Of a DNA stretch of 64,000 bases, positions 2,945 to 48,608 are shown piece after piece. Location: the NCBI GenBank assembly GCA_020629755.1, contig JAHDCS010000001.1:72103-136102 (forward strand). The letters run 5' to 3'. Within the stretch, counting starts at the first letter, position 1. Every line of letters begins with the position of its first letter. The notes below the pieces were generated by a model. That model did no database searches, was not told the DNA's origin, and saw nothing but the letters and a program-made list of their open reading frames with translations. Source of the stretch: Flavobacteriales bacterium. Its GTDB lineage: Bacteria; Bacteroidota; Bacteroidia; Flavobacteriales_G; JALEGO01. The position numbers and the translations under genes are program-made.

Positions 2945-3082
2945 ACAAACGAAAAAAAATAATAAGGTTGCCTACAAAAATACGTCATTTGCAAAGGCAA
3001 CGCAATAAAAACCACTAAAATCAAAAGTTTTATGCTTAAAACTGACGAGCAACTGCTCAGAAATTTTTATTTTGAATGCATT

Positions 3083-3901: not shown

Positions 3902-3977
3902 TTTTTTAACAATGCACTATGAATGTTTTTTTAGGGGGGGATGGCTTGAGCAAGAAAATCAAGATTAATTTTGCTCT

Positions 3978-6464: not shown

Positions 6465-7033
6465 AAGAATAGGATTAAGATTAAAACAAAATCTGTTGAA
6501 AGAAGTGCTGCACTTAGTTTTTCTTTCATGTTTTTTTTCGCTTCGCTCAAATAGCGTTTTGAGCTTCTCTCAGAAATACTGAGTTCTTGTGCAATGTCTT
6601 TATGTGAAAACCCTTCTAAAAAAAACATGTGAAATACCCTTTTTTGTTCTATACTCAATGTCAGAAGAGCATTTTCAATGTCTTGGCTTTGATTTGAACT
6701 CTTATTTTCTTTAGATAAAAAATACTCTAATGTATCTTGATCAATTCCTAGGGCTGTTTTTTCATTATACAACTTTTCCCTTCTTATTTTATCTATTGCA
6801 CATCTAGAGGTAATTTTCTTGGCCCAAGCTACAATATCTTTACTTGTATCAAAAGTCTTAAGATTTACAATAAGTTTAAAAAAGGCATCGTTAATTACCT
6901 CGACACTTTTTTGTTCATCTCTCAGATACCAAAAAGCAGTCCGCATCAAGTCTTGAAACAGAAATTTATAAAGCGCATACTGCGCTTTTTTTTCTTCTCT
7001 AAGACACCCTTGTATTAGCGTATTGATTTTCAT
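6461..7033 (-). CDS. RNA polymerase ECF-type sigma-70 family factor
   Basis: 190 aa. Region 2-like 'DAFFKLIVNL...W..KI' and region 4 HTH 'GFSHKDIAQELSISERSSKRYLSEAKK'. Confidence 0.8.
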   Translation of the reverse strand: MKINTLIQGCLREEKKAQYALYKFLFQDLMRTAFWYLRDEQKSVEVINDAFFKLIVNLKTFDTSKDIVAWAKKITSRCAIDKIRREKLYNEKTALGIDQDTLEYFLSKENKSSNQSQDIENALLTLSIEQKRVFHMFFLEGFSHKDIAQELSISERSSKRYLSEAKKNMKEKLSAALLSTDFVLILILFL

Positions 7034-7066
7034 AAAAAAAGCCCAGATCTATCAAAATCTGGGCTT
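7034..7066 (-). terminator. Rho-independent terminator after the 7078..8718 gene, directly abutting the sigma-factor start codon
   Basis: On the minus strand: stem gcccagat/atctgggc (8 bp), 8-nt loop, followed by a run of 7 T. Confidence 0.6.
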
Positions 7067-7077
7067 TATGTATAGTG

Positions 7078-8718
7078 TTATTGTTTCACGATTTGTTTTA
7101 CAAAATTACCACTATCTGAAACGATCGACAAAATATAAATCCCTTTAGGCAATACGGAAAGATCTAAGATGTAATTATTTTGAGAGATCCTATTTGTTTT
7201 ATCAAACACCTGCTTGCCATAGAGGTCATAGATAGTCATCTGCACAAAACTATGATTTGCGTTTAATAATGAAACATTCAACGTTTCTTTGATTGGATTT
7301 GGATAAACCTCAGCCTCTAATTGCTTTTGCTCACTTACAGAAGTCAGTACATTTAAATCGCTGATTACATTTAAGGTGAATCCACTTGCCAGCTTTCCTG
7401 AAATAAAATTACCCGCAGAATCAATCCCTATTGAATCACAAAAGGTTGAGGTGCAGTTAATATTGGTATCATATGCTGTCACGCAAACAGTATACACACC
7501 CGGATTTACATATGTATGTGAAGGATACGGGTCTGTAGAACTATTGCCATCACCAAAATCCCATATATACGATAGGTTACTGTCTGATAAGTTAATTAAA
7601 TACAATTCAAAAGGGCTGTTGGCGTTGTGATGGGTTAAAAAAGCAGCATCACACGCTCCAGCATTGGGGTTATAATAATAACATTGTGTAGCCACGCATC
7701 CTGAAAGAATATTTGTAATAGTAACGCAGTATACTCCTGGATCATTTACCGAAAGAATATCCCCAGAATCTCCGGTATTCCACAAATACTCTAATTGCGT
7801 GTTATTAGGAAATCCTGGTGAATTTGAATAATAATCAGCCTCTAAAGCCGGAAAGGTTGTCGTTGAACTTGGGTAAACTACTGCATAACACGATAACTGT
7901 GTGGTGTCATCGACTGTCACACAAACCGTATCAAATCCTTGGCAGCCAACTGCATCTGTAACAGTTAAAGAATAGCAGGTTGAACTATCTACGGTAGCAA
8001 ATGGATTAGCTATTGTATTACTTGTCACATAAGGACTTGGAGACCAAGTATAAGTAAACGGGGCATTATTGCCTAACGCGGTAGGATTACCTCCTAATTG
8101 CACTTGAAGACCTGAATTATATATAGTCACATCCTCACCGGCATCTACCACAACACAAGGCCCATTTGAAGGCACATATGTAAAACAAGACACATCAGAA
8201 CACCCCATTACATCAGTGATAGTCACACAATATTGCCCGGTACTATTAGTATAAAGTATAGAATCATTAGACCCATCAGACCATTGGTATGTGTAGGATC
8301 CAAGACCTCCTGACCCACTTGCTAAAAATACAGAATCTGATATTGACACCACTTCTACCTCAACAGGTGTGCCTAAACTTGGGCAAGGACCTACAGGCTC
8401 ATAGTAAAAACAGGCATAGGCTGAACATCCTGAAGCAGAATCTGTTGCGGTTACACAATAATTGCCTTCTAAATTAGCTTGTACAGTTTGTGTATATGCA
8501 ACACTTGAATCTGGCAAAATCCACTGATAAGTAAACGGATAAGGCAAGATAGGCGGATTCAACATAAAATCAGCATCTAAATACGTTAAGCCACCATAGG
8601 TAGTATCATTTATTTGAACATCGCATTGCGTTTGAGAAAAAATTTGAGCACAAAAAAACAAGCTCAATAAAGAGGTGTATAAAATTTTCATTCTTTTAAA
8701 ATTTAAGTTTCTATACAC
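7078..8718 (-). CDS. T9SS type A sorting-domain surface protein with a PKD domain and Cys-rich 'YTYQWSDGS'-type repeats
   Basis: Signal peptide 'MKILYTSLLSLFFCAQIFSQ'. PKD motif 'WDFGDGNSSTD'. C-terminus 'VYPNPIKETLNV...IYDLYGKQV...LPKGIYIL' is Por_Secre_tail-like. Confidence 0.8.
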   Translation of the reverse strand: MYRNLNFKRMKILYTSLLSLFFCAQIFSQTQCDVQINDTTYGGLTYLDADFMLNPPILPYPFTYQWILPDSSVAYTQTVQANLEGNYCVTATDSASGCSAYACFYYEPVGPCPSLGTPVEVEVVSISDSVFLASGSGGLGSYTYQWSDGSNDSILYTNSTGQYCVTITDVMGCSDVSCFTYVPSNGPCVVVDAGEDVTIYNSGLQVQLGGNPTALGNNAPFTYTWSPSPYVTSNTIANPFATVDSSTCYSLTVTDAVGCQGFDTVCVTVDDTTQLSCYAVVYPSSTTTFPALEADYYSNSPGFPNNTQLEYLWNTGDSGDILSVNDPGVYCVTITNILSGCVATQCYYYNPNAGACDAAFLTHHNANSPFELYLINLSDSNLSYIWDFGDGNSSTDPYPSHTYVNPGVYTVCVTAYDTNINCTSTFCDSIGIDSAGNFISGKLASGFTLNVISDLNVLTSVSEQKQLEAEVYPNPIKETLNVSLLNANHSFVQMTIYDLYGKQVFDKTNRISQNNYILDLSVLPKGIYILSIVSDSGNFVKQIVKQ

Positions 8719-8788
8719 CTATACGTTAAGGATTCAGAAAAAGGGCCAAAAAAATATCTTTTTTTCAGTCATTTCTTATTTTTGTGTC

Positions 8789-10054
8789 GTGGAACTATAT
8801 GCCAAAGCCTTACTTTATGCCATTCCTTTCTTTTTAATCCTCATTTTTATTGAAGAAGTAGTAGCGCGTGTGATGGGCAAAAAAGTAAACCACTCTTTAG
8901 ACACTGTCTCTTCTTTGAGCTCTGGAATGACCAATACCTTAAAAAAACTATTGGGCTTAAGCATCGTTATTTTTAGTTATGATTTTTTTGTAGAACACCT
9001 TGCTTTGTTTACTATAGAATCAAAGCCTATCAATTATATTTTAGCCTTTATAGGTCTTGATTTCGCAGGTTATTGGGGGCATCGTTTTAACCATAAGATT
9101 AATGTGCTTTGGAATCGGCACATTATTCACCACAGTTCAGAAGAATTCAATCTGGCTTGCGCCCTTAGACAAAGCGTTTCTGAAACCGTTGCTATTTACA
9201 CCTTTTTAGGCATTCCGATGGCTATAATCGGAATTCCTTATCAAATTATTGTTACCATCGCGCCCATTCATTTATTCGCGCAATTCTGGTATCACACTCG
9301 GCTTATTGATAAAATGGGTGTTTTAGAATATCTTATTGTGACCCCTTCTCATCATCGTGTACACCATGCGATTAATCCAGAATACATCGACAAGAATTTT
9401 GCGCAAATTTTTATTATTTGGGATAAACTTTTCGGAACGTTTCAAAAAGAAGAAAACCACATCCCCCCAGTATACGGCATTACAAGACCTGTGGGCACCT
9501 GGAACCCTATTTTAATCAATTACCAACACATGTGGCTGTTGCTAAAAGATGCCTTTCACACCAAAAGCCTTAAAGAAAAGCTAAGCCTCTGGTTTAAACC
9601 TACTGGATATAGGCCAAATGATGTCAAAGATTTATATCCCCCCGAAAAAATAGACGACCCTTACAAACAAATTAAATATTCCTCAGAGCCCGACGGTCTT
9701 TTACATGCCTACAGCTGGATGCAGCTGATCATTCACAATATACTTTTAGTACATCTTTTATCTAGTGTCTCAATGCTTTCAAAACAAGCGCTTTCTTTAT
9801 ATGTGATTTTTCTTTTTGTGTCTGTGTTTGCCTTTACGAGCATTATGGATAGGCGTTTAATAGGCAAAGTATTTGAAGGCTTAAAGCTTGTTATGGCGGT
9901 CTGCATTTTATTTTACTTCAAAGATTGGTTTGGGCTTTCTAGTATTTTTTCTGTCGGATTATTTTTACTGGGCGGATATCTTTTGCTTTCATTTATATTA
10001 GGAATGATCATCCGGCCTATTTCTGTAAATAAAACACCCGGAATATTGACATAA
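8789..10054 (+). CDS. Sterol desaturase / fatty-acid hydroxylase family membrane protein
   Basis: Histidine boxes 'HRFNHK', 'HIIHHSSEE' and 'HHRVHH'. The track ORF starts at 8675 but overlaps the convergent upstream gene; the in-frame GTG at 8789 ('ELYAKALLYAIPFF') is the more plausible start. Confidence 0.75.
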   Translation: MELYAKALLYAIPFFLILIFIEEVVARVMGKKVNHSLDTVSSLSSGMTNTLKKLLGLSIVIFSYDFFVEHLALFTIESKPINYILAFIGLDFAGYWGHRFNHKINVLWNRHIIHHSSEEFNLACALRQSVSETVAIYTFLGIPMAIIGIPYQIIVTIAPIHLFAQFWYHTRLIDKMGVLEYLIVTPSHHRVHHAINPEYIDKNFAQIFIIWDKLFGTFQKEENHIPPVYGITRPVGTWNPILINYQHMWLLLKDAFHTKSLKEKLSLWFKPTGYRPNDVKDLYPPEKIDDPYKQIKYSSEPDGLLHAYSWMQLIIHNILLVHLLSSVSMLSKQALSLYVIFLFVSVFAFTSIMDRRLIGKVFEGLKLVMAVCILFYFKDWFGLSSIFSVGLFLLGGYLLLSFILGMIIRPISVNKTPGILT

Positions 10055-27741: not shown

Positions 27742-27938
27742 AACATGAGAGTATTATTCGTATTGTAATAACATAGGTTTATAAAAAGAGTCATTCGTAT
27801 AGGCAGATATTGAAGTTACCAATAAAACAAAAAGATCCATTTGCTAGAAGAGATTACATGCAAGTTTACAGAGAACTCTCTTCTGCCTCTACTAGTGTAG
27901 ACCTTGGGCGAATGCATAAAAAAGGTGATAAGAACAAG

Positions 27939-28158
27939 ACCCTCTACCTGAAGAGACAAGTAAAAAAGAGTTAACCAAAAACTCTTCTTTTTTAACCTGT
28001 TTACATGCTGCTGTTTTAATATCTTCCTATCTTTGCCACATATTTTTCTTAAATGATCAATGTTACTTTACCTGACTGTTCGGTTCGTTCGTATGAATCG
28101 CCCATCACCCCTTTAGAAATTGCCACCTCTATAAGTGAGGGCTTGGCTAGAAATGTGT
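27939..28158 (+). repeat. Direct repeat copy 1 (~220 bp): terminator + thrS promoter + thrS codons 1-35
   Basis: Aligns without gaps to 29850..30069 (offset 1911 bp), with about 11 mismatches by manual count (~95% identity). Confidence 0.9.
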
Positions 28159-28160
28159 AG
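28053..28160 (+). pseudogene. Truncated thrS 5' fragment (35 codons, then TAG at the repeat junction)
   Basis: Encodes '[35 protein letters not shown]', against the intact ThrS N-terminus '[39 protein letters not shown]'. Confidence 0.9.
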
Positions 28161-28247
28161 CTAAGTAACTATTTAATGGCATTTTACTTCTGTAATTCCT
28201 ATGTTTGTTCTGAAAATACGACAATTTTCGTAATGATATAATGTACT

Positions 28248-29774
28248 ATGCCACTGCCCGTTAACATACAAGATCTTTTATCTGCTAAATCGGTAGAAAG
28301 CGAGCGTATTGAATACAAAGAGGGCTGGAATCCAGATGCTATTTACAGAACCATTTGTGCTTTTGCCAATGACTTTAGCAATATTGGTGGTGGGTATATC
28401 ATTGTGGGAATTGAAGAAAAAGATGGTAACCCTATAAGACCAGTAAAAGGTATTGAAGAACATAAACTCGATCACATTCAGCAACAAATGATTGGGTTTA
28501 ACCACCTCATCAAACCGACCTATCATCCAAAACTGGAGATCGAAGAAGTAGATGGTAAAAAAGTATTGGTGCTTTGGATTCCCGGAGGAGCCAATAGACC
28601 TTATGAAGTGCCCGAACAAGTAACTGCCAAAAAGAAAGCTCCTCATTATTACATCAGACGATACGCCAGTACGGTAAAAGCAGAAAAGCAAGAACAAGAA
28701 GAATTGATTAGTCTAGCCAATCAAGTGCCTTTTGACGATAGAGCAAATACCAAAGCGAGTTTAGATGACATTTCCTTTACGCTACTTAAAGAACATCTTA
28801 GACTTACCAAAAGTAAATTACTGAACTGGGTAGAGGAGAAGCCAAAAGCTGAGGTGTTAGAGCAAATGGAATTGCTGTTTGGGCCTCCAGAACAATCGTT
28901 TCCAAGAAATGTAGCTTTGATGCTGTTTTGTGAACAGCCAGAACGTTTCTTTCCATACAGTAGAGTAGAGATTGTGTTTTTCCCAAAAGGAGCAGCTGAT
29001 CCAGAATTTAGAGAAATTCCAGCTATTAGTGGAACCGTGCCCAAAATGATCAAAGAGACCCTGAGTTATTTGCGTACGCATGTATTGGAAGAACACATCA
29101 AAAAAGTGCCCAATCAACCCGAAGCCATACGTGTTTGGAATTATCCTTATGCGGCATTAGAGGAGGCGGTAGCCAATGCCTTATATCACAGAGATTATTT
29201 GGTAAGGGAACCGGTAGAAATTCGCATTTACCCAGACAGCATCACCATTTTAAATTATGGAGGACCAGACCGATCCATCAAGCCCGAAGCATTTCAGAAA
29301 GGCGTGATTAAACCGAGGCGTTATCGCAATAGAAGGTTGGGTGATTTTTTGAAAGAGTTAGATCTTACTGAAGGTAGAGCAACCGGTATTCCCATCATTA
29401 GAAAAGCACTTGCCGAAAATGGTTCTCCTGAAGCGTTTTTTGATACCGATGATGATAGAAGTTTCTTTGAAACAACTCTTTTCATACACGAAACTTTTAA
29501 AAATGCTGTTTCTAAGAATGAACCAAGGGTCGGAGAAAAGGTCGGAGAAAAGGTCGGAGAAAAGGTCGGAGAAAAGGTCGGAGAAAAAATAACCGAGAAT
29601 CAGCAAAAAATTCTAGCGATCATCAAAGAAAACCCCCACGCGTCAGCTAAGCAAATGGCTGGAATTATAGGGATTTCAGATCGAAAAATAGAGAAGAATA
29701 TTGCCACGTTAAAGCAAATGCAATTTATTAGACGAGTAGGTCCAGCTAAAGGCGGCTACTGGGAGATTGTATAA
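28248..29774 (+). CDS. AlbA_2 (Schlafen-like divergent AAA) + HATPase_c_4 + C-terminal winged-HTH protein ('RecG-like putative DNA-binding/ATP-binding protein')
   Basis: N-terminus 'ESERIEYKEGWNPDAIYRTICAFANDFSNIGGGYIIVGIEEKDG' matches the AlbA_2 signature. 'ALEEAVANALYHRDY' matches the HATPase_c_4 signature. C-terminal 'ILAIIKENPHASAKQMAGIIGISDRKIEKNIATLKQMQFIRRVGPAKGGYWEI' is a wHTH. Confidence 0.8.
   Translation: MPLPVNIQDLLSAKSVESERIEYKEGWNPDAIYRTICAFANDFSNIGGGYIIVGIEEKDGNPIRPVKGIEEHKLDHIQQQMIGFNHLIKPTYHPKLEIEEVDGKKVLVLWIPGGANRPYEVPEQVTAKKKAPHYYIRRYASTVKAEKQEQEELISLANQVPFDDRANTKASLDDISFTLLKEHLRLTKSKLLNWVEEKPKAEVLEQMELLFGPPEQSFPRNVALMLFCEQPERFFPYSRVEIVFFPKGAADPEFREIPAISGTVPKMIKETLSYLRTHVLEEHIKKVPNQPEAIRVWNYPYAALEEAVANALYHRDYLVREPVEIRIYPDSITILNYGGPDRSIKPEAFQKGVIKPRRYRNRRLGDFLKELDLTEGRATGIPIIRKALAENGSPEAFFDTDDDRSFFETTLFIHETFKNAVSKNEPRVGEKVGEKVGEKVGEKVGEKITENQQKILAIIKENPHASAKQMAGIIGISDRKIEKNIATLKQMQFIRRVGPAKGGYWEIV
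29528..29587 (+). repeat. Perfect 12-bp x 5 tandem repeat (ggtcggagaaaa) encoding (VGEK)5 inside the AlbA_2 gene
   Basis: Five identical head-to-tail 12-mers were read directly. They are in frame, between the ATPase-like region and the wHTH. Confidence 0.95.
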
Positions 29775-29849
29775 AAAGCATCGAATTCAATGCTATTAAA
29801 CATCAGGCCATTCCCCTAAAGCTTTTTGTAACCTTTTGTTTGCAATTCC

Positions 29850-30069
29850 ACCCTCTACCTGAAAGGACAAGTAAAAAAGAGTTAGCCAAAAACTCTTCTT
29901 TTTTAATCTGTTTATATGCTGCTGTTTTAATATCTTCCTATCTTTGCTACATATTTTTCTTAAATGATCAATGTTACTTTACCCGACGGTTCGGTTCGTT
30001 CGTATGAATCGCCCATCACCCCTTTAGAAATTGCCACCTCGATAAGTGAAGGCTTGGCTAGAAACGTGT
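29850..30069 (+). repeat. Direct repeat copy 2 (~220 bp), contiguous with intact thrS
   Basis: See copy 1. Contains hairpin terminator 29877..29905, -7 box 29939..29946 and the thrS start at 29964. Confidence 0.9.
29939..29946 (+). promoter_or_regulatory. Bacteroidota sigma-A -7 box (TATCTTTG = TAnnTTTG) for thrS; duplicated at 28028..28035
   Basis: Matches the TAnnTTTG consensus 17 nt upstream of the thrS ATG. An identical box lies in repeat copy 1. Confidence 0.55.
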
Positions 30070-31901
30070 TGGCTGCTAAAGTCGACGATCAGATCGCAGA
30101 TCTCACATCCCCCCTAAAAAAAGACTGCCACTTAGCGCTTTTAAAATTTGACGATGTAGAAGGTAAAAAAACCATGTGGCATTCTTCTGCGCATCTTATG
30201 GCAGAAGCTTTAGAGAGTCTTTATCCTGGAGTTAAATTTGGCATTGGCCCTGCCATAGACGGCGGATTTTATTATGACATTGACTGTGGCGAGCACACCA
30301 TTTCTGAGAAAGATTTTGGTGCAATTGAAAAGAAAATGCTTGAATTAGCCTCGACTAAAAGCCCATATGTTCGTAAAGAAATCTCTAAAAGAGAGGCCAT
30401 TGCTTATTTTAAAGAAAAGGGCGATGAGTATAAATTAGAACTCTTAGAAGATTTAGAAGACGGCACTATTACTTTTTACACACAAGGCGGATTTACCGAT
30501 TTATGTAAAGGTCCGCATATCCCCAATACTGGTTTTATTAAGGCGGCTAAAATTTTAAAAGTGGCTGGTGCCTATTGGCGGGGGGATGAAAAGCGCAAGC
30601 AACTCACTAGGCTTTACGGCATCACCTTTCCGAAACAAAAAATGCTTACAGAGCATATGCATTTATTAGAAGAAGCCGCTAAAAGAGACCACCGTAAACT
30701 CGGAAAGGCTTTAGAATTATTTGCTTTTTCACAAAACGTAGGGCAAGGCTTGCCTTTATGGTTACCAAAAGGTGCAGAGTTAAGAGAGCGCTTAGAACAG
30801 TTCTTAAAAAAAGCGCAGGTAGCAGCCGGATATGACCCCGTAGTAACCCCTCATATTGGATCAAAAAAATTATATGAAACCTCTGGGCATTATGAAAAAT
30901 ATGGTGAAGATTCTTTTCAGCCGATTAAAACGCCTGACCAAGATGAAGAGTTTTTACTTAAACCCATGAACTGCCCGCATCATTGCGAAATATACAAGAC
31001 TAAACCACGCTCTTACAAAGAGCTGCCCGTTAGATTTGCGGAATTTGGCACGGTATACCGCTATGAACAAAGCGGTGAGCTGCATGGATTAACCCGCGTA
31101 CGCGCCTTTACCCAAGACGATGCCCATATTTTTTGCCGCGCCGATCAAGTAGAAGAAGAATTCAAAAAAGTGATTGATCTTGTGCTGTATGTATTTAAAG
31201 CGCTTGATTTCAAAGAGTTTACCGCGCAAATCTCTCTAAGAGATAAAACAGATAAAGAGAAGTATATTGGCTCAGAAGAAAACTGGAACAAAGCCGAAGC
31301 AGCTATTATAAATGCAGCCAAAGAAAAAGGATTGCAAACTGTTGTAGAGTACGGAGAAGCAGCCTTTTATGGGCCTAAATTAGACTTTATGGTTAAAGAT
31401 GCTCTATCAAGAAGTTGGCAATTGGGCACCATACAAGTCGATTACAACTTACCAGAACGCTTTGACTTAACATATATTGGCTCTGATAATCAAAAACATA
31501 GGCCCGTAATGATACACCGTGCGCCCTTTGGATCGATGGAAAGATTTGTGGCGGTTTTAATCGAACATTGCGGCGGACAGTTCCCTTTATGGCTCACCCC
31601 AAATCAAGCAGCGGTAATTCCAGTAAGCGAAAAGTACAATGATTTTGCTCAAAAACTTTCAAAGTTGCTGAAAAATTACGAAATTCGCGCACTTGTAGAT
31701 GATAGAAATGAGAAAGTGGGGCGTAAGATTAGAGACAACGAACTAAATAAGATTCCTTATATGTTGGTTGTCGGTGAAAAAGAAATGCAAACGAACACCT
31801 ACCAAGTTCGTAAGCAAGGCAAAGGGGATCTTGGCACATTCTCATTAGATGCATTTGCAGAAATAATTAATAACGATATAAATAGTTCTATTGGCGATTA
31901 G
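29964..31901 (+). CDS. thrS: Threonine--tRNA ligase
   Basis: TGS domain N-terminus, editing-domain '[10 protein letters not shown]', class II motifs '[26 protein letters not shown]' and '[13 protein letters not shown]'. Confidence 0.97.
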
Positions 31902-38298: not shown

Positions 38299-39496
38299 AA
38301 AACTTCTATTTTTAACCACCCAATTGCCTTATCCCCTCATCAGTGGAGGGGTCATTAAATCGTTTAAACTCTTAGAATGTTTGTCTAAAAATTATGCTGT
38401 TACCCTTATTTGTCCGCTAAAAAATAAAGATCAAGACCAAATTGTAGCATTCGAAAAACAACTCTCGCTTTCAAAAACATACTATAAACCCATTCATAAA
38501 ACACGAAGTTCTTTTAATCTTTTAAAAAGCTATCTAAGAGCCTCTACTTTAAATGTATACAGAAATTTCGATGCTCAAATCAAAAAAGAGGTACAAGCAC
38601 ACTCTAAAAATGCTGATCTTATTTTAATTGACCATTATGAAATGGGCGTTTACATCCCCCCAAAATACAATGGCAAAGTGATTTTGCACCAACATAATGC
38701 CGAATATACGCTTTGGGAAAGTATGGCTAAAACCATGCGTTTTGGCCCTAAAAAAATAGCAGTATTAAGTGAAGTTTCAAGAATAAAAGCCGCTGAAAAA
38801 ACCTATTGCAATAAAGCCGATTTAGTCTGGGCTGCGCCTTCAGACATTGATGCTTTAAAAAAAATAGGCGTTACGACTCCTTTTTCTCACACACTGCATC
38901 TAGGCAAAGAGGCTTTACTCTCTTACCCTGCGCTTAATTTTCATAAAGAAAATAAAAACCTGCTTTTTGTGGGCTCTCTAGATTGGGAGGCAAATGTAAG
39001 CGGGTTACTATGGTTTATCGACTCGGTGTGGCCTTTAATTTTAGCCAAGCAAGATAATGCCACGCTTACCGTAATCGGAAAAAATCCAGACAAGCGCCTT
39101 ATAAAAGCGGCTAAAAAAACAAAACATATTACATTTAAAGGTTTTGTAAAACATTTAGATGCCGCCTTTTTAAATGCTAAAATAAGCATCGCGCCTCTTT
39201 TGTTTGGCAGCGGCATTAAAGTTAAAGTCGTAGAAGCCCTATACAGAGGCATTCCTATGATCACTACTTCTTTTGGTGTGCAGAGCTTAGAGGTTCAAAA
39301 CAAAAAACATATTTGCGTGTGCGATGACCCGAAAGACTTTGCTTTAACAGCCATTAAACTATTAGAGCATAAAAAAACCTGGACAGATTTATCAAAAAAT
39401 AGTCGCGCTTTTGCTTCTCAACATTTAAGATGGGAACCCTTACTTAAAAAGCATCTAAAAGAGATCGATGGTCTGCTCACTAGAGCTAAATTGTGA
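38291..39496 (+). CDS. Glycosyltransferase, GT4 family
   Basis: GT-B architecture with C-terminal '[21 protein letters not shown]'. Overlaps the obg stop by 8 nt. Confidence 0.7.
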
Positions 39497-39655
39497 TAAA
39501 ATGGCATAAAAGATTTTTAATAGAAAAGACAAATTTTGAGGCAAAAAACACAGACATAGCAGTAGCTATGGTGAGTATTTTTAACGAAGAAACTTGGTTT
39601 TTATATATAAAGATTTGTGACGTTTTATCACAATTTAGCTCTAACGCACTAAGCT

Positions 39656-40450
39656 CTATCCCCCCACCACAAAAATAAACGTCATGCTGCCTGTTTGCTC
39701 TAAAGGGGCTCGTGAATCTGGATTAAATTTTGTTTTCAGTGCGGCTTCTTTGGCTTTTTTAAATAAAATAGCACTCGTGGTGGTAGACCCTTTTATACCC
39801 GGATCAGCCCTAAACACCTCTCCGTTTTGGTTCACGTATATACGCACAACAACCTTGCCCTCGTCTTGTGAATCATCGTAAATCTTAGGCGTACTAGATA
39901 ATTTTCGTCCGCCTAGTACAAAATTACCCCCTCCGGGCAAAGCCCCTCCGGTCTTTCCTCCGTATTTACCACCGTATTCTCTGCCCTGAACACCCGATTG
40001 GCTATCGTTGCCTCCTCCGTTGCCATTGCCACTCTGCGTATTCTTTGTTTTACTAAATAGATTTGTCAAATGATTTTGGAGCTTTTTGGCTTCGGCTTGC
40101 TCTTTTTCGGCCTGTATTTCTTCTGGTGTTTTTTCTTTTTTAGGGGATGGATTATCGCTTTTCACCACCTTTGCTATCGAAGGTGTTTCTTGGGTAACAA
40201 AATCTTCAGTTGTTGCCGTATTTTGTTGTACGACTTCTTCTACTTGGGTGTTTTGCTCTGGGGGCGCCTCAAATGTATCTCCTGATCCGGCATCTTCAAA
40301 ACCTAAACGGATTTGCAAAGGCATGCCGTCTTCTTGTATGGGCGGATCAGGCTCGGTAAATCCAGTAAACAAAAATAAGATGAGCAAGCACAAATGAAAC
40401 ACCAAGGTGCCTATGATGCCTTTTCTTTTATGTTCTTTGGAGGATGACAT
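39656..40450 (-). CDS. Energy transducer TonB-like protein
   Basis: N-terminal anchor, P/E/K-rich linker, G-rich segment and C-terminal TonB-type fold 'GKVVVRIYVNQNGEV...'. Lies downstream of exbB-exbD. Confidence 0.75.
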   Translation of the reverse strand: MSSSKEHKRKGIIGTLVFHLCLLILFLFTGFTEPDPPIQEDGMPLQIRLGFEDAGSGDTFEAPPEQNTQVEEVVQQNTATTEDFVTQETPSIAKVVKSDNPSPKKEKTPEEIQAEKEQAEAKKLQNHLTNLFSKTKNTQSGNGNGGGNDSQSGVQGREYGGKYGGKTGGALPGGGNFVLGGRKLSSTPKIYDDSQDEGKVVVRIYVNQNGEVFRADPGIKGSTTTSAILFKKAKEAALKTKFNPDSRAPLEQTGSMTFIFVVGG

Positions 40451-41631: not shown

Positions 41632-43782
41632 TTAATTTATAAGGCCTACTATTCTTGGGATGTTCCAAATGTTTTTTCTCAAAGGGTTAAAATTGTTTCT
41701 CTTTAACTGCCATTCTTCACGTGCCCAAAAATGTAAATTTGACACCGGAAATAAATAGCCAAATTTATAAGCGGTTGCGCTTTTCTTTCGCCTTGCCAAT
41801 TGCTCTACATCATACCTGTATAGGCCTTCTAGTGCTTGTACATACCTCAGGCTTTTTTCTCGTATTTTTTTAGCTGAATCTAAGTAATGTACTGCTTTTT
41901 TCTTTTTTGAATACGATGCTATATACTGTAATGTATTTGCTTTATGTGCTGCTCTTTGAGCGGTTAATTGCAAAGCCAATACAAGCTCTTTTTTTAACTG
42001 AACTATCTGCTCTGAAACCTTTTGATCCTCTATTTTATAAGCCAAGTCTTTAAGTTGCTTACTGTATTCAAAAAGCGGCAATGCGACATGCAGGCGCAAA
42101 GAATCTCTTTGTGCAGCATTGTACTTCCTAAGCATGTGTTTATAAGTATGTTTTGGCCTAGGTACAAACTCTATATTGAATCTTCCAAAAAGCTCATCGG
42201 TCGGTTGCGCAGCGGTGATATAGCGAATTAAGCCTTTTTTAATCAAATATTCTTCTTGAAGCTGATGTACAGAATCAAATAAACGTGTGATCTGATTATT
42301 GCGATACACCTTTTCAATGGGGTCTAAAAAACTGCTCTTTTTATGCGTTGTCCAAGACCAATTTGCAATGGCCCAATCAAACATCCAGTGTGAAAACTCC
42401 CATCCGCTTGTAAAGGTCAAATGCCCATTAACGCCTAAAGAATCTGTGAGCAAAATGTCTCTATGTCGGCGCGACAGATATTGAGAAAAATAATTGGGTA
42501 TGCTATTATCAAACGTAATCCAGTACGCTGATTCTGGATAGTACCAGGTTTCTCTTTCTGTTAATTTATGAGATAACACATCATACATGTGTGTTAAGTT
42601 TTTGCTCCCATAATTTGGCGCTATACTGTCTTTTAGACCATAACTCATAACTGTATGCACCATTGAGCCTATGTTTTGTTCTATCTTTTTATGACCAGGC
42701 TCTAAATAGTTTGTTCTATGGGTATTTGAAAGCATATTTTCTTTTTTAACAACATGCTTTCTACTCATCACTTTAGCGTTGTAGGTTGAAGAAATATAAT
42801 CTGCAATCCATAGCATCTTTTTTTGCTTTTTTGTGGTATTGCCTTCTGTAAACTCAGTTGTAGAAAACTCAATGTTGTAGAGGTTAAATCCAATAGCTGC
42901 TAAACGATCTATATGTCTTTTGATCTGCTTGTCTTTTTTTCGGAGGGATGCAGGAAAGCTTTTGTATAACATATACGCTTTTTGTTGTATCATGTGCAGT
43001 GAAATATCTATCCCCACTAAAATACCCCTTTGATGCGCGTAGGCTACAATTTTTTTTGCATAATGGGGCCAACGCTTAGCGTTAATAGATTCTAAAAGAG
43101 AAAATTCAAAATAATTTTGTCTATTTCGAGCCAACCAATCAATGTACCTCTTTACTTCTTTTAAGCTAGAATCAGATGGCACTAAAAGATGTTCTGTCAA
43201 CTCTAAAGGATGTTGGGTGTGTAAATGAAATCCTTTAATTCTAAATCTTGGTTGTGAAGAAAAGTCGCTCTGTAATAGCTTCTGAACAGATAATGGTTTA
43301 TGATAAATTGTTTGTTTTGGGTGGATGAAATATACGCCTAATGCATCATGCAAAAAACCGTATAACCCATGAGATATTCCAATATCAGACCTGCAAGAGA
43401 GAATGCAAACAAGCGTGTCTTTTACTTTATTTACTGACCATGTATAGGCGTGGTCAGCAAAAGAAAGTTCTTGGTATCCCTTAGAAAAATCATACTGCTT
43501 TTCTAGTTCTTTTGTAAACCTTGAGGAGTCCGTAAGCTCAGGCAAGATTACCTGAAAAACATTGATCTTAGATAGTGTTAAAACCTCATTTAACTGTAAC
43601 GTTTGTAATTGAAAATCTTGAATGGCAAGCCTAACAGCCTGGTTGTTCTGATAATACTCTTGATGAACAAACTCTATTTTTTGCGTTTTAGTTTGACTAA
43701 AAACTTGCGAAGAAAAAACAATCAGTAAGCCTCCGTATAATACCCTCTTTATAATGTGATTATTTACCTTAGTCAATAACAA
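41632..43782 (-). CDS. Conserved hypothetical secreted protein; weak resemblance to GH20-type N-domain + TIM-barrel glycosidases
   Basis: Signal peptide. 'GISHGLYGFLHDALGVYF' and 'PRFRIKGFHLH' resemble the GH20/DUF4838 domain junction, but no catalytic motif was confirmed. Its start overlaps the adhesin gene's stop by 14 nt. Confidence 0.35.
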   Translation of the reverse strand: MLLTKVNNHIIKRVLYGGLLIVFSSQVFSQTKTQKIEFVHQEYYQNNQAVRLAIQDFQLQTLQLNEVLTLSKINVFQVILPELTDSSRFTKELEKQYDFSKGYQELSFADHAYTWSVNKVKDTLVCILSCRSDIGISHGLYGFLHDALGVYFIHPKQTIYHKPLSVQKLLQSDFSSQPRFRIKGFHLHTQHPLELTEHLLVPSDSSLKEVKRYIDWLARNRQNYFEFSLLESINAKRWPHYAKKIVAYAHQRGILVGIDISLHMIQQKAYMLYKSFPASLRKKDKQIKRHIDRLAAIGFNLYNIEFSTTEFTEGNTTKKQKKMLWIADYISSTYNAKVMSRKHVVKKENMLSNTHRTNYLEPGHKKIEQNIGSMVHTVMSYGLKDSIAPNYGSKNLTHMYDVLSHKLTERETWYYPESAYWITFDNSIPNYFSQYLSRRHRDILLTDSLGVNGHLTFTSGWEFSHWMFDWAIANWSWTTHKKSSFLDPIEKVYRNNQITRLFDSVHQLQEEYLIKKGLIRYITAAQPTDELFGRFNIEFVPRPKHTYKHMLRKYNAAQRDSLRLHVALPLFEYSKQLKDLAYKIEDQKVSEQIVQLKKELVLALQLTAQRAAHKANTLQYIASYSKKKKAVHYLDSAKKIREKSLRYVQALEGLYRYDVEQLARRKKSATAYKFGYLFPVSNLHFWAREEWQLKRNNFNPLRKNIWNIPRIVGLIN

Positions 43783-46700
43783 AAGGGATTGTTTTATAGT
43801 GCAAAGACTTTAATTCTTCAATATAGAGCCAATACATCCCTGAAGAAATAGTATGTACTAAAATTGTATGCTCAAATTCAGAGGCATGTGCATAAAAATC
43901 TTCACTGTATAGGGCTTTTCCAAAAGCATCGTATATCCGTATTTTTAATCTGCCAGGCGTTTTATAATTAACCCCTGATAAAATGAGCCTTTGATCTACA
44001 ATAGGGTTAGAGCGCAAATAAATAGCTGGGGCTTGATGTGCTCCTATATCAATCCCTACTGCTGTGCTATCCTCAACCCCAATAGTAATAATAGCGGTTT
44101 CCTCACATTGTTGATTATCTGTTATAGTGACAAAGTATGTCCCTGAACTAATATTAGCAAGTGTGGCCGTGGTATCTGTCGTATTCCAAAAATAACTATA
44201 CGGAAAAACACCTCCATTAGGTGTTAGTTCTACAGAACCATCTGAAGACCCTAGTACCGATGCGTTGGTTGTAGATATGCCCACAGAAAATCCAGGACAT
44301 GGATTGGTTTGCGGATCATAGATTTGCACAGAATCTTCCACCGAACAACCTATTGCATCTTGAACGGTTATGTAATAAACGCCAATAGATAAACCTGATA
44401 TTAAAGGCGTATTTGAGCCGTTTGACCAAGAATACCCGTAAGGTTGATTTGCTCCAGAAGCAAATGCGCTTGCAGATCCATCCATAGCGCCAACAGCACT
44501 AACATCTGTGGTAGATAAACTCACAATTAAATCACAAGGATTTGTGCCGGAAGAATCCACACCAATCGACACAAGACCACTAAATACACAACTATTTGCA
44601 TCTAATACATTTAGCGTATAGGTTCCCGTAGATAAGTTAGAAATAGAACTCGTTGTATCGCCTGTTTGCCACGTATAGGCATATGGAGGAGTACCTCCTA
44701 CAACAAAGGCGCTTGCAGACCCATCATTTGCACCAATAGCGCTTGTATTTTGTGTGGTTACATCTACAAGAAAAGTAGAGCACGGATCAGTCATGGTACT
44801 ATCTACAGGAATAAACACACTAAGGGTTGCCACACAACCACTATCGTCTGTCACAGTTACAGCATATGTTCCTGAAGCTACACTGTCTAAACTTACGCCT
44901 ATAGATCCATTTGACCAAGTAATACCATAAGGGGTTGTACCTCCAGAAATCGATAGTTGAGCAAAGCCATCATTAGCGCCAGTAGAAGTTTCATTCATAA
45001 TACTATTCACATTTATGACTACTGGATTTAAACTATCGCAAGGGCCTGTCGGATTACCTCCTGAGGATGAATCTAGTGGAATAAAAATAGACGCTACTTT
45101 AATACAACCCAAGCTATCTTCTACAGTAGCTGTATAAGTATTTGAAGCTACTCCGCTGATCACAAAACCCGTAAACCCATTTGACCAGGTAACATTATAT
45201 GGAGAAGTCCCTCCGCTTACCATTACTTCTGCTACACCATCATTAGCTCCAGAAACACTTTCTGAAGCAATCAAGTTGCTGCTTACCAACAACGGGTTTA
45301 AACTATCGCAAGGGCCTGTGGGGTTACCCCCTGAAGAAGAATCTAGTGGAATAAAAATAGACGCTACTTTAATACAACCCAAGCTATCTTCTACAGTAGC
45401 TGTATAAGTATTTGAAGCTACTCCGCTGATCACAAAACCCGTAAACCCATTTGACCAGGTAACATTATATGGAGAAGTCCCTCCGCTTACCATTACTTCT
45501 GCTTCACCATCATTAGCCCCAGAAACACTTTCAGAAGCAATCAAGTTACTGTTGACCAACAACGGGTTTAAACTATCGCAAGGGCCTATAGACAGGTTTA
45601 CATCGACAAATCCTGAATCTACGATGCTACACAACAACGAATCTGTTACGGTAACCGAATACCAACCTGTACTTAAACCAGAAATAGAGTTTCCATTAGC
45701 CCCATTGCTCCATATATAATTGAAATTTCCATTACCTCCTAATGCCGTTACATTAGCTGTTCCATCACTTGCATTTGAAGCCGTTTCATTTGTTGTAGAA
45801 ACAGAGGCTTGAAAATTTGAGCAGGCATTACAATTTTGTGTGTTTACATAGACATAATCAGAGGCTGAACACCCTGTTTGATTGTCTATTACTTCTAATT
45901 GAAACCCCAAAGGAAAAACCATTGGAATTACAGTTGTGTTTTCAGAGGTATAATTGGTTAAGTAGTCTAAATTTTGTATTTCAGGAACTTCTGACCATTG
46001 ATAAGAATAATCGCCTGTTCCACCCACAGCTGTAGGTGATGCTCCAAGATAAAGTGAATCTGTGGTACACACGCTGTCTAACACATGCGCTTCAGCTATA
46101 AAGCTAGAATTTTTAAATACCGTGATTTTATCGTAGCCATAACAATTTGTGGCATCATATAAGATTAATTCATAATTATGATATCCATCACTTAAGTTCG
46201 ATACATTTAATGTTGGATGTAAAATACTGTTGCTACTTAATTCTTGGCCAATCCATTGATACGTATAAGGAGGTGCGGAACTACCAAAAGGCTCTATCCC
46301 TCCCATTTCTAAGGCCGGTTTAGAGGTACACACCGTGTCTCCATAAGTTTGTGTATGTAAATGATTAAAGGCTTGAACTGGACTTGGAGATCCTTGAGTT
46401 AAAATAACCACCGTATCAAGTTTTACACACCCTTGTGCATCTGTGACTTTTAACACACAATTATTATATCCAAAATTTATACTTGAATTCGGTGTAATCA
46501 GCGGGTTAAGTGCATTTGGGTCTTCAACCGTGTAATCCGTAATCCATTCTATTGCATAAGGCTCTAAACCACCTGTCACACTTGGGTTACCACCAATTCT
46601 AAAGTCACCAGATAAACACAAGGTGTCAAATAACCAGGCATTCACAATTAAGGTATTGTTTAGGCAAGAACTGGTGAAATTTAAATCATCATTAATAATG

Positions 46701-47926
46701 ATCCAATTGTAAATTGACATAAGTTCATTTCGAGCTGAATCAGCTGTAAAATAGTATAAACTATCCGCGCCTAAAAACAATCCATTTTGCACATTTTGTA
46801 CAGACCACCCTATTAAGGTTTGGTCATAATTTTGTTGATTTAAGCCTGAAAAAGAAAGCATTTTTGTGAGGTTATTTGCCTCTGAAATATCCCAAGCGCT
46901 TAATGGCTGATTAAAACTTTCAGCCCTATGAAAGACATATGAAAAATCACTGATATTACTGACATTAAAATGGGTAACCGATTGATTAAATGAGAGTGCC
47001 ATATCAAACATCCCTTTCATTGAATTTGCAGATGAAGTATTCCAATTTGTGAGAGGCTTGTCAAACATTGAAGCCTCTTGAAACATTTCTCTAAAATCTT
47101 GTACATTTTGTGTGTTCCAAGCAGAAACATCTCCATTAAATACGCTAGCCCCTTTAAACATCTGATGCATATCGACAACATTAGCGGTATTCCAGCTGTT
47201 AAGTGGCTGGTTAAAGGCCGTTGCATTATTAAACATTGAATGAAAATATTGAGCACTAGACGTATTCCATGAACCTATTGGTTGGTTAAAACTCTCTGTG
47301 CCTAAAAACATAGAAGAAAAATTAACCCCTAAGGCTGTGTTCCAGCTACTGATGTTGCTATTAAAGGCATGGCAATTAAAAAACATCCCCCCAAAATTTG
47401 TAGCTTGAGAAACATCCCAACCACTTAAATCTCCATTAAACAAATAACACTGACTAAATGCAAAAGAAAAATCTGTAGAGGCTGACAAATCAGGAGTATC
47501 TGTAGCTGAAGAGGTTAGATTCGCACATCCAGAAAACGCATTTGACATACTTTGCCATTTTATATCTCCCCATTGTTCAATATTTAAAATCTTCTCTTTA
47601 TCTCCGGTGTTAGAAAAAGCAATATACTGTATTGCATCATTAGGATTTGCTGATGGAGTTATGCTAATGCTATAAATCCCTGCAGACGGAAATGTAACTG
47701 TATACAGATCACTTACTAAACCCTCTGTTCCGTTGTTTGAAGGATTTGCTACTTCTTGCCAGTCAATGGTGTAATCACCAAATGCCGGTATCCGCATTTG
47801 ATTCATCGCGCTAGTTCCTGGCAGTTCAGTATTACAGGTCGTAATAAAAGGTGACTGTGAAAGAAAAACAAGGGGCAACACAACAGATGCCACCATCGGT
47901 AAAAAAAACTTTAGAGTATTCGTCAT
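43769..47926 (-). CDS. Giant T9SS type A surface adhesin: N-terminal BspA-like (DUF285) LRR repeats + about 8 SprB-type repeats
   Basis: Repeated 'F..c..FN..l..WNts.v..m..MF' units (DUF285/BspA type). Repeated 'GANDG.A...vsGGt.PY...WSNG' units. C-terminus 'IRIYDAFGKALY...SGMYWLYIE'. The ATG at 47926 (signal peptide 'MTNTLKFFLPMVASVVLPLVFLS') is preferred over 48019, which overlaps rsmG. Confidence 0.8.
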   Translation of the reverse strand: MTNTLKFFLPMVASVVLPLVFLSQSPFITTCNTELPGTSAMNQMRIPAFGDYTIDWQEVANPSNNGTEGLVSDLYTVTFPSAGIYSISITPSANPNDAIQYIAFSNTGDKEKILNIEQWGDIKWQSMSNAFSGCANLTSSATDTPDLSASTDFSFAFSQCYLFNGDLSGWDVSQATNFGGMFFNCHAFNSNISSWNTALGVNFSSMFLGTESFNQPIGSWNTSSAQYFHSMFNNATAFNQPLNSWNTANVVDMHQMFKGASVFNGDVSAWNTQNVQDFREMFQEASMFDKPLTNWNTSSANSMKGMFDMALSFNQSVTHFNVSNISDFSYVFHRAESFNQPLSAWDISEANNLTKMLSFSGLNQQNYDQTLIGWSVQNVQNGLFLGADSLYYFTADSARNELMSIYNWIIINDDLNFTSSCLNNTLIVNAWLFDTLCLSGDFRIGGNPSVTGGLEPYAIEWITDYTVEDPNALNPLITPNSSINFGYNNCVLKVTDAQGCVKLDTVVILTQGSPSPVQAFNHLHTQTYGDTVCTSKPALEMGGIEPFGSSAPPYTYQWIGQELSSNSILHPTLNVSNLSDGYHNYELILYDATNCYGYDKITVFKNSSFIAEAHVLDSVCTTDSLYLGASPTAVGGTGDYSYQWSEVPEIQNLDYLTNYTSENTTVIPMVFPLGFQLEVIDNQTGCSASDYVYVNTQNCNACSNFQASVSTTNETASNASDGTANVTALGGNGNFNYIWSNGANGNSISGLSTGWYSVTVTDSLLCSIVDSGFVDVNLSIGPCDSLNPLLVNSNLIASESVSGANDGEAEVMVSGGTSPYNVTWSNGFTGFVISGVASNTYTATVEDSLGCIKVASIFIPLDSSSGGNPTGPCDSLNPLLVSSNLIASESVSGANDGVAEVMVSGGTSPYNVTWSNGFTGFVISGVASNTYTATVEDSLGCIKVASIFIPLDSSSGGNPTGPCDSLNPVVINVNSIMNETSTGANDGFAQLSISGGTTPYGITWSNGSIGVSLDSVASGTYAVTVTDDSGCVATLSVFIPVDSTMTDPCSTFLVDVTTQNTSAIGANDGSASAFVVGGTPPYAYTWQTGDTTSSISNLSTGTYTLNVLDANSCVFSGLVSIGVDSSGTNPCDLIVSLSTTDVSAVGAMDGSASAFASGANQPYGYSWSNGSNTPLISGLSIGVYYITVQDAIGCSVEDSVQIYDPQTNPCPGFSVGISTTNASVLGSSDGSVELTPNGGVFPYSYFWNTTDTTATLANISSGTYFVTITDNQQCEETAIITIGVEDSTAVGIDIGAHQAPAIYLRSNPIVDQRLILSGVNYKTPGRLKIRIYDAFGKALYSEDFYAHASEFEHTILVHTISSGMYWLYIEELKSLHYKTIPFVID
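45031..45570 (-). repeat. Two tandem 270-bp units (~96% identical) inside the adhesin gene
   Basis: 45031..45300 against 45301..45570. A central stretch of more than 150 bp is identical in manual alignment. Encodes two 90-aa SprB-type repeats that differ at 2 residues. Confidence 0.9.
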
Positions 47927-47978
47927 AGATCTAGGGGTTATAACGAAAGTATATTTTTTTTTAAAACTGAGCTCTACC

Positions 47979-48608
47979 CTATTTTTGTTTTCTGACAGAT
48001 AGCACTTTTTTGGTCTCAAAAAAAGGGCCTGAACAAAATGTGTTTAAAGGAAACTCTTTAAATGAATATGCGTTAACTTCTTGTTTTTCTTCGCTAAGAT
48101 CTCCGCCTTTTAAATACAAAAGCGCTTGAAAGTTTTTGTGGTTCATTAGCTTATCCACCCAAGGTAGAAAAACAGACAACCGTTTAACTGCACGACTCAC
48201 TAAATACGTAGGGCGTGCCTCAATGTTTTCTATGCGCTCACACTTAATTAGAATATTCTCAAGCCCTAGTTGATGCGCTATATCCTGCACAACTTTTAAT
48301 TTTTTTTGAATAGAATCAACAAGTAAAAACGACGTGTCAGGAAACATGATGGCCAATGGAAGCCCTGGAAACCCTCCACCTGTCCCTACATCAATCACAA
48401 AATCTGAGGCAGAAAATGTTTGAACCTTTGAGATTAGAAGAGAATGTAAAAAATGCCGCTCTCTGATCAAATGATGTTCTTTTCTTGAAATCACATTGAT
48501 TTTATGATTCCAATCTATATAGAGCTTTTCGGCATGCTTAAGCATTTCGATTTGCTCTACAGATAAATTTGAAAAAAACTGTTGATACGCTATCTCAGTA
48601 TTTTTCAA
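47979..48608 (-). CDS. rsmG: 16S rRNA (guanine527-N7)-methyltransferase RsmG
   Basis: SAM-binding motif 'DVGTGGGFPGLPLAI'. 209 aa. Confidence 0.9.
   Translation of the reverse strand: MKNTEIAYQQFFSNLSVEQIEMLKHAEKLYIDWNHKINVISRKEHHLIRERHFLHSLLISKVQTFSASDFVIDVGTGGGFPGLPLAIMFPDTSFLLVDSIQKKLKVVQDIAHQLGLENILIKCERIENIEARPTYLVSRAVKRLSVFLPWVDKLMNHKNFQALLYLKGGDLSEEKQEVNAYSFKEFPLNTFCSGPFFETKKVLSVRKQK

Follow-up and report, generated by a model that had tools for sequence, protein, structure and literature searches.

A Schlafen-like gene between diverged copies of the thrS 5' end in a Flavobacteriales contig: a putative integrase-less, single-gene insertion

In a 64-kb stretch of contig JAHDCS010000001.1 from a Flavobacteriales bacterium (these 64,000 nucleotides as a whole are called the window below), the thrS gene is preceded by a second, truncated copy of its own 5' end, and the two copies of this region enclose a single gene for an AlbA_2/Schlafen-like protein, which we refer to as the cargo gene. 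An earlier note, made from the letters of the window without database searches, had pointed out these diverged repeats and compared them to the ends of an integrative element. Here, we describe the locus and consider the ways in which such an arrangement could have come about. The features that constitute it are the following.

27939..28158, plus strand: upstream copy of the 220-nt repeat (attL-like), 114 nt of the thrS upstream region followed by thrS codons 1-35
28053..28160, plus strand: ThrS' stub, an ATG-started open reading frame (ORF) of 35 codons with a G9C change and a TAG formed at the junction of the repeat and the cassette
28159..29849, plus strand: cassette interior, 1,691 bp, unique to the locus, with one gene between an 89-nt leader and a 75-nt tail
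28248..29774, plus strand: cargo gene, 508 aa, with a Schlafen/AlbA_2 N-terminal domain, HATPase_c_4 (GHKL-like fold) and a C-terminal MarR-type winged helix-turn-helix (wHTH)
29850..30069, plus strand: downstream copy of the 220-nt repeat (attR-like), the same upstream region and thrS codons 1-35, continuing into the intact gene
29964..31901, plus strand: intact thrS, 645 aa, with the four expected Pfam domains (TGS, tRNA_SAD, tRNA-synt_2b and HGTP_anticodon)

A repeat search returned 27939-28158 and 29850-30069 as a direct repeat of 220 nt with 95% identity and a spacing of 1911, and the MAFFT alignment of the two copies contains 11 mismatches and no gaps, with similarity dropping sharply at both edges (BLAST E = 6e-98 for the pair). 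The only other long repeat in the window is a tandem of 2 x 270 nt inside a large ORF. The stub matches residues 1-35 of ThrS at 34 of 35 positions, its sole change, G9C, replacing a Gly that is found in all seven aligned ThrS sequences, and its stop codon (TAG, 28158-28160) is made of the last base of the repeat and the first two bases of the cassette. The downstream copy runs into a complete thrS, which is followed by infC, rpmI and rplT. The gap-free alignment at a 1911-bp offset with about 11 mismatches, the 35-aa stub with its G9C change and in-frame stop, and the continuation of the other copy into intact thrS had all been described in the earlier note, and each of them was reproduced on recomputation. 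One intact target gene is accompanied here by one truncated and displaced fragment, as in elements that replace the end of the gene into which they insert.

The mismatches fall at positions 15, 16, 36, 58, 66, 99, 135, 139, 192, 201 and 216 of the repeat, and the longest run identical in both copies is 52 nt. Among the 35 shared codons there are four synonymous changes and one non-synonymous change; the proportions of synonymous and non-synonymous differences (pS and pN) are 0.156 and 0.013, respectively, with a ratio of 0.08 and a binomial p = 0.014. Mainly synonymous divergence of the target-end repeats is a further trait of gene-end-replacing elements. It follows from the bias towards synonymous changes that most of the divergence arose when each copy still belonged to a thrS gene that worked. 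Judging by the sequences, this pattern is what is expected if the divergence built up at the heads of functional thrS genes in separate lineages and the stub decayed slightly later, and it agrees with the different histories that had been proposed for the two copies on the grounds of their divergence.

A local event would be another way to generate the repeats: illegitimate recombination or template switching could have inserted the cargo gene and duplicated 220 bp in situ, after which the copies diverged or one of them was overwritten through allelic recombination. Tandem and insertion-linked duplications are common, and the non-synonymous change of the stub affects an invariant Gly, as in a decaying copy. 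A neutral stub, however, should gain mostly non-synonymous changes, while the observed ratio is 4:1 in favor of synonymous ones, and 40:8 (p = 1e-18) at a metagenomic dnaB locus that is described below; the stub is also devoid of indels at 5% divergence. Furthermore, mismatches are found within 15 nt and 4 nt of the repeat edges, a spread that one homologous replacement tract could not bring about unless it deleted the cassette. We consider a local origin of the thrS repeats improbable.

The cargo gene is the sole long ORF between the repeats, as had been stated before. Its product matches SLFN_AlbA_2 (2.9e-17), HATPase_c_4 (6.7e-12) and HTH_24 (9.5e-06) of Pfam, which is the three-domain architecture of the COG2865 type, and it is intact and full-length in comparison with its homologs, the best of which is 71% identical. 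No integrase or transposase families are present among the Pfam matches listed for window ORFs of at least 120 aa, and a tblastn probe with a Bacteroidota tyrosine integrase, which picks up integrases at 7 other loci, has no match in the 64 kb. The absence of such enzymes from the earlier reading of the window thus agrees with both searches. The ends of the cassette carry neither terminal inverted repeats nor direct similarity to each other, the best end-to-end match being 12 nt and within the range of shuffled sequences. Since the similarity of the cassette to other loci is limited to the cargo coding sequence, there are no conserved cassette ends either.

The AlphaFold model of the cargo protein is of moderate quality (predicted local distance difference test score, pLDDT, of 66). 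Its fold matches are 3lmm, the N-terminal domain of SLFN5, CA (GHKL) domains of histidine kinases and MarR-type wHTH, and the fold search with this model returned no recombinase- or transposase-like domain; because of this, there is no support from the predicted structure for the idea that the cargo protein catalyzes its own insertion. The only solved relatives are the structural-genomics entries 3lmm and 2kyy. Two familiar classes of elements were considered for the cassette and rejected. An insertion sequence (IS), a transposon or a miniature inverted-repeat transposable element does not fit, as there are no terminal inverted repeats, the duplication is 220 nt long and diverged, and no transposase family was found. 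Nor does an integron gene cassette, as the 75-nt tail folds no better than its shuffled versions (z -1.4), no integrase is present and the repeat consists of thrS sequence; an attC-like array around a cargo homolog was seen at one locus only (L180, see below).

The relative positions of the repeat, the stub and the intact gene are precisely those that a single crossover would leave. We infer that, with fair probability and somewhat short of confidence, the cassette is a minimal, integrase-less, one-gene islet that was inserted by a single (Campbell-type) crossover with a foreign copy of the thrS end. In such an event, a single reciprocal crossover between the resident thrS promoter and 5' region and a homolog of ~220 bp, about 5% diverged, on the incoming DNA would duplicate the homologous segment on either side of the insert. 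The downstream copy would still head a complete thrS and the cell would survive, the function of thrS being kept because the duplicated segment includes both the promoter and the start codon. The upstream copy, cut at codon 35, would be left as a dead stub, with G9C presumably acquired afterwards. An arm that comes from a foreign allele would explain the synonymous-biased divergence over the whole length of the repeat, since a crossover preserves this pattern, which in-situ duplication followed by one allelic replacement cannot produce.

The recombination itself could be due to host homologous recombination or to a recombinase encoded elsewhere, with the cargo protein probably not being the agent. 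We favor the host machinery and regard a trans-acting recombinase as the alternative, because no recombinase is found in the cassette or in the window and because the arms at comparable loci differ from each other and share no core. The incoming DNA may have originated as a circle, either looped out or derived from a tandem duplication, in a donor with the cargo gene located just 5' of thrS, and transfer would then have proceeded from such a donor into the present locus. The cassette may still be mobile: recombination between the repeats could loop it out as a 1.9-kb circle with one repeat copy, and the repeat-cargo-repeat structure could spread to empty sites by ordinary recombination and be lost again through repeat recombination. 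While in place, it would probably allow the duplicated thrS promoter to read into the cargo gene.

A metagenome scan with an alignment of cargo homologs yielded 80 loci, which were inspected for bracketing repeats both automatically and manually, and the same footprint was encountered at several of them. At L151, an AlbA_2 gene (6001-7773) lies between a 3' fragment of dnaB (5095-5661) and intact dnaB (7826-9169, minus strand). The dnaB repeat is 567 nt long, with 90.7% nucleotide and 96% protein identity, and its divergence is overwhelmingly synonymous (pS 0.32, pN 0.019, pN/pS 0.06, 40:8 synonymous to non-synonymous changes); the junction between the dnaB fragment and the cassette was assembled again in a second sample (L148). 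At L164, an AlbA_2 gene is located between a decayed 5' stub of an ABC-transporter ATPase gene and, further on, the intact ATPase gene. The L110 array contains fragments of a GT4 gene and 49-codon 5' stubs of ahcY in two or three copies (92.6-96% identity), which separate one AlbA_2 cassette and two cassettes with AAA_14-DUF4143 genes from each other. At L136, a 209-aa lipoprotein gene is duplicated at both ends: a copy of its 3' end (162 nt; 98.7% identity by BLAST over 155 nt) is found beyond an AlbA_2 cassette, and a copy of its promoter with 120 codons (484 nt, 97.5%), which leaves a 128-aa stub, is found beyond an AAA_14-DUF4143 cassette. Because the L136 repeats are nearly identical and lack synonymous bias (pN/pS 0.55), they may have arisen by the in-situ duplication discussed above.

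Across loci, the cassette interiors measure 1.6-2.4 kb and hold one main cargo gene each, two of them with a small extra ORF. The junctions of five loci have no common motif, and the repeats, 150-570 nt long, represent a different gene end at every locus. At the bracketed homolog loci there is no tyrosine-integrase homolog and no recombinase among the ORFs scanned with Pfam. The 5' stubs of the window, L164 and L110 are co-directional with the cargo, so that a duplicated housekeeping promoter could drive it at these loci; promoter capture is not a general property of these cassettes because the arms of L151 and L136 are 3' ends. As a control, a survey of 1.2 Mb around thrS in 80 Bacteroidota genomes produced one high-identity bracketing pair, the variable and template repeats of a diversity-generating retroelement. 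This retroelement (L078, 170-3909, the thrS locus of a Bacteroidales metagenome-assembled genome, or MAG) has its reverse transcriptase at 2776-3771, and its template repeat at 3772-3909 is 89% identical to the variable repeat (2082-2219), which forms the 3' end of a gene with an FGE-sulfatase domain. One homolog locus, L145, was set aside, as its 1.25-kb repeats are two complete 406-aa genes around a multi-gene region with an integrase nearby.

Several observations weigh against insertion by a single crossover. Bracketing repeats are present at only 3-4 of the 52 homolog loci with adequate flanks, so that the footprint is a recurrent but minority state of the cargo family, and the supporting loci are all metagenome assemblies. 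The selection test in the window rests on five substitutions only, and the L136 repeats, at 97.5-98.7% identity, do not have the synonymous bias at all. RecA-dependent recombination is inefficient at 5-9% divergence. Finally, the searches brought up neither an empty site nor a donor allele, and neither an excised circle nor another strain, the species occurring once in each collection searched.

The dependence on assembled contigs raises the possibility that the arrangement is an artefact, in which the assembler joined a small circular or strain-variant molecule with the thrS 5' homolog and the cargo gene to the chromosome through k-mers common to both. The copies offer identical runs of up to 52 nt for such joins, the source is a contig, possibly of a MAG, from an organism without a sequenced relative, the supporting loci are metagenome contigs, and a crossover made in silico looks the same as a real one when there are no reads to consult. 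At the junction of the stub and the cassette, however, just 4 identical nt follow the last mismatch, which cannot be a k-mer join, and a 1.9-kb circle lacking a replication gene is an implausible replicon. The topology also recurs in independent assemblies, the L148 and L151 junction having been assembled twice from different samples. An assembly error seems to us very improbable.

The closest precedent for the thrS islet, judged by analogy of architecture, is e14 and phage 21 in the icd gene, and the earlier comparison with integrative elements that rebuild the end of an essential gene is supported by what we measured for E. coli e14. There, as here, what is repeated is the terminal part of an essential or housekeeping gene; the complete gene makes use of one copy, the other survives as a fragment out of place (the icdC pseudogene), and the divergence amounts to a few percent and is mostly synonymous: the icd-icdC repeats are 165 nt long with 12 mismatches and 2 amino-acid changes, and those of the window are 220 nt long with 11 mismatches and 1 change. 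The element e14, however, is 15.2 kb long and encodes intE and xisE, whereas the insert in the window is 1.69 kb with one non-recombinase gene, and e14 targets the 3' end of icd, whereas the 5' end including the promoter is involved at thrS. As its sole gene encodes an AlbA_2/HATPase_c_4/wHTH protein and no integrase, the islet was rejected as a full member of the e14/phage 21 type.

This precedent also suggests that the islet could be what decay has left of an integrase-bearing prophage or large island like e14 or phage 21, which integrated site-specifically at the 5' end of thrS with a thrS start of its own and later lost all but one gene by internal deletion. The length of the repeat, its divergence and the synonymous bias are close to those of e14 in icd almost number for number; moreover, the closest cargo homolog (71%) resides within an element with an integrase and RteC, and integrases occur at some other homolog loci. 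But the non-coding DNA between the cargo gene and the repeats is just 89 nt and 75 nt long and contains no gene fragments, and the same reduction to a single main cargo gene (1.6-2.4 kb) would have to have occurred independently at five or more loci. L110 and L136 hold several cassettes, each with its own arms, no conserved core motif exists at the junctions across loci, and no integrase homolog lies within 8 kb of thrS among the 80 Bacteroidota genomes listed. Decay of a large island appears rather unlikely to us; the earlier note had left the choice between a decayed and a trans-mobilized minimal cassette, and it is the minimal cassette that the recurrence at five or more loci favors.

Other known systems share parts of the arrangement. 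The cis-mobilizable elements (CIMEs) of Firmicutes are att-flanked islets without integrase and conjugation genes (PMC5704250, PMC7563491). Like the thrS islet, which has no recombination or transfer genes, they are enclosed in direct repeats at the end of a housekeeping gene, and they form arrays by accretion, which may be compared with L110 and L136. They differ in that their att sites belong to a known family of integrative and conjugative or integrative and mobilizable elements with an integrase acting in trans, whereas no cognate element or integrase is known for the window islet, and the repeats of the window type are 150-570 nt of the adjoining gene end and differ at each locus. A genomic island of Vibrio cholerae supplies a divergent recA upon insertion into this gene (PMC4405046). 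It resembles the thrS islet in targeting an important housekeeping gene and in bringing its own diverged copy, so that function is kept, but it is large and carries integration genes and a full replacement gene, whereas the window islet supplies 35 codons, a promoter and one cargo gene. We classify the latter as a long-armed insertion of a single gene, without an integrase, at the 5' end of its target, a variant of the known gene-end insertions.

The closest mechanistic parallel to the proposed crossover comes from the laboratory, where insertion-duplication (Campbell-type integration) of non-replicating circles is the suicide-vector method. In both cases, the homologous arm alone does the targeting and becomes duplicated, an arm taken from a gene end leaves one intact gene, and no enzyme of the element is required. 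We know of no description of insertion-duplication as a way in which one particular class of cargo genes is repeatedly inserted in nature. The 'minimal mobile elements' of Neisseria are likewise exchanged through flanking homology, but they use two flanking arms and leave no duplication behind.

It is tempting to extend the proposal to both cargo families. COG2865 (AlbA_2-HATPase_c_4-wHTH) and COG1373 (AAA_14-DUF4143) might together constitute a class of integrase-less, single-gene mobile cassettes of Bacteroidota, each equipped with a synonymously diverged homology arm from the end of a housekeeping gene (thrS, dnaB, ahcY or the ABC ATPase gene) and inserting by a single crossover that rebuilds the target. 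Such cassettes would be natural insertion-duplication vectors, similar to the 'home-and-rescue' design; 5' arms would donate a promoter, and the cargo might promote the event. We regard this generalization as doubtful at present. A search for literature linking COG2865, COG1373 or DUF4143 to repeats or mobility found nothing relevant. It adds to the interest of the observation that two abundant and unexplained families repeatedly occur with the same footprint at the ends of housekeeping genes.

If single-gene cassettes do spread with a diverged copy of the end of a core gene, accessory genes could enter beside essential genes without an integrase, a transposase or an att core, a route that would escape programs which find islands or mobile elements by their recombinases or by tRNA sites. 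The patchy, high-copy distribution of COG2865 and COG1373, which are very abundant and functionally unknown families, may have its explanation here, and the short pseudogene pieces of housekeeping genes, 5' or 3', that occur in Bacteroidota genomes would be accounted for as well. In the source genome, the thrS promoter is duplicated, the Schlafen-like gene is probably expressed from the duplicate and the locus could revert by recombination between the repeats.

The cargo family has thousands of members in Bacteroidota, and 84 plasmid records contain homologs. The closest of them, within the integrase and RteC element mentioned above, adjoins a type IIG/ISP restriction enzyme gene, and neighbors of other homologs include DUF6079 proteins, DNA methylases, HsdM/HsdS, SNF2 helicases, integrases and Mu-type transposases. 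These neighborhoods are defence-island surroundings, and the occurrence of homologs on plasmids and next to restriction-modification genes and integrases bears out the defence or mobile context that the earlier note had given for AlbA_2/Schlafen-like ATPases. PADLOC gave only partial matches for the cargo protein, to the Schlafen-type and associated domains that are fused in the pAgo (prokaryotic Argonaute) and Aga models, and no NCBIfam model matched it; lacking a full-length PADLOC match, it was not assigned to any named anti-phage defence system. We infer a nucleic-acid-binding, ATP-dependent role in defence or regulation. One more feature is located within the cargo gene.

29525..29587, plus strand: 12-nt tandem repeat of about 5 units, encoding (GEKV)n in the linker before the wHTH

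The repeats of the linker that precedes the wHTH vary between members of the family, being (GEKV)x5 in the window, (NGGL)x4 in L110 (at about 2560-2610) and EGANxQA x2 in L136, and these sequences point to a linker that is length-variable, probably through slippage.

Several features of the region upstream of thrS and of the cargo gene concern transcription.

28028-28035 and 29939-29946, plus strand: candidate -7 box TATCTTTG, in both repeat copies
28200..28207, plus strand: candidate -7 box TATGTTTG, 40 nt 5' of the cargo ATG, a consensus match only
27810..27974, plus strand: 54-codon ORF with a TTG start, its last 11 codons inside the repeat; probably no gene

The TAnnTTTG motif is not enriched in the window (75 found versus 95 expected), and what lends credibility to the -7 box of thrS is solely its position together with the conservation of CTATCTTTGCT 5' of thrS in a relative with 82% identical ThrS (L089). 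The box reported earlier for the repeat therefore stands as to its presence in both copies and its conservation, but the motif as such carries no weight of numbers, and the second box, that of the cargo gene, was located where it had been placed. Read-through of the duplicated thrS promoter into the cargo gene is plausible from the sequence. Two other readings of this region had to be corrected. The repeat had been thought to carry the end of an upstream ORF, but the ORF at 27810-27974 (54 aa) has no Pfam match and no homolog among 1.84 billion representative proteins, because of which it is probably not a gene, and it seems best to regard the left 114 nt of the repeat as intergenic. The proposed hairpin terminator is a weak structure, with an A/U-rich stem of 6-7 bp (-5.3 to -6.3 kcal/mol, z -0.7 to -1.3), for which a terminator scan gave no call.

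The 30 kb around the locus are of housekeeping nature, with secA, rnhB, a SurA-like gene, lptC, coaX, a tRNA-Phe gene and genes for a TPR protein and a protein sorted by the type IX secretion system (T9SS). The gene order is that of the T9SS-sorted protein, the cassette, thrS-infC-rplT, adk and obg. The source, a flavobacterial-type member of Bacteroidota, is represented by a single 144-kb contig at NCBI. In the genome with the next-nearest ThrS (82% identical, GCA_020631045.1), genes for a DUF547 protein and gcvP precede thrS, without a cassette. Among the matches listed in a ThrS scan of one genome per species, the relatives are at most 74% identical, and none has a cargo homolog or a duplicated thrS 5' end. 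Exact-protein look-ups of the cargo protein, ThrS, L20 and P0121 matched no contig, a degenerate DNA pattern for ThrS residues 9-20 gave nothing in the metagenome or viral collections, and a lineage-specific flanking protein of 553 aa matched only itself. Because these searches found nothing closer, neither an empty site nor a donor allele was obtained. When the mismatches of the repeat were polarized on L089, two sites favored the upstream copy and three the downstream copy, an ambiguous result.

A few further observations were made at the homolog loci. L148 and L151 (1-7411) share 6,170 bp of 100% identity, comprising the flank, the dnaB fragment and the spacer. All of their 58 differences are located in the AlbA_2 gene (6171-7294), and 71% of these affect third codon positions. 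Their distribution suggests allelic or paralog conversion confined to the cargo gene, or co-assembly of variants. Directly beyond the displaced dnaB fragment of L151, positions 1958-4405 encode an RVT_1 reverse transcriptase, a 118-aa ORF and a PRTase-CE protein, and because these genes adjoin the fragment, the 3' flank of dnaB in this organism is a defence-gene hotspot. At the edge of the L110 array there is a 60-codon 5' stub of metK (174-356), a third housekeeping fragment in this 8-kb contig besides the pieces of the GT4 gene and the two ahcY stubs. L180, which is Aquiflexum balticum DSM 16537 (LT838813.1, 5258621-5270153, reversed), has its cargo homolog at 5001-6533, where single genes (Fic, AlbA_2, HTH_3, DUF1801 and others) are lined up in a row, each behind an imperfect palindrome of ~75-100 nt, TTAAACCGCAAAG...CTTGGCGGTTAAAAA. 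The palindrome copies, at about 3399, 4678, 6738, 7404, 8182 and 8313, are about 80% alike, and judging by its sequence, the row resembles an integron-style cassette array with attC-like sites, located here in the complete genome of an isolate.

Within the window, the tandem mentioned at the outset (45024-45563) consists of two 270-nt units with 96% identity inside a 1416-aa ORF (43769-48019, minus strand) and probably reflects the recent duplication of a domain in a large surface protein. A 46-nt inverted repeat (39481-39526 and 39598-39643, 78% complementary, with a 71-nt spacer) is intergenic and lies between a glycosyltransferase gene and the ORF at 39656-40450.

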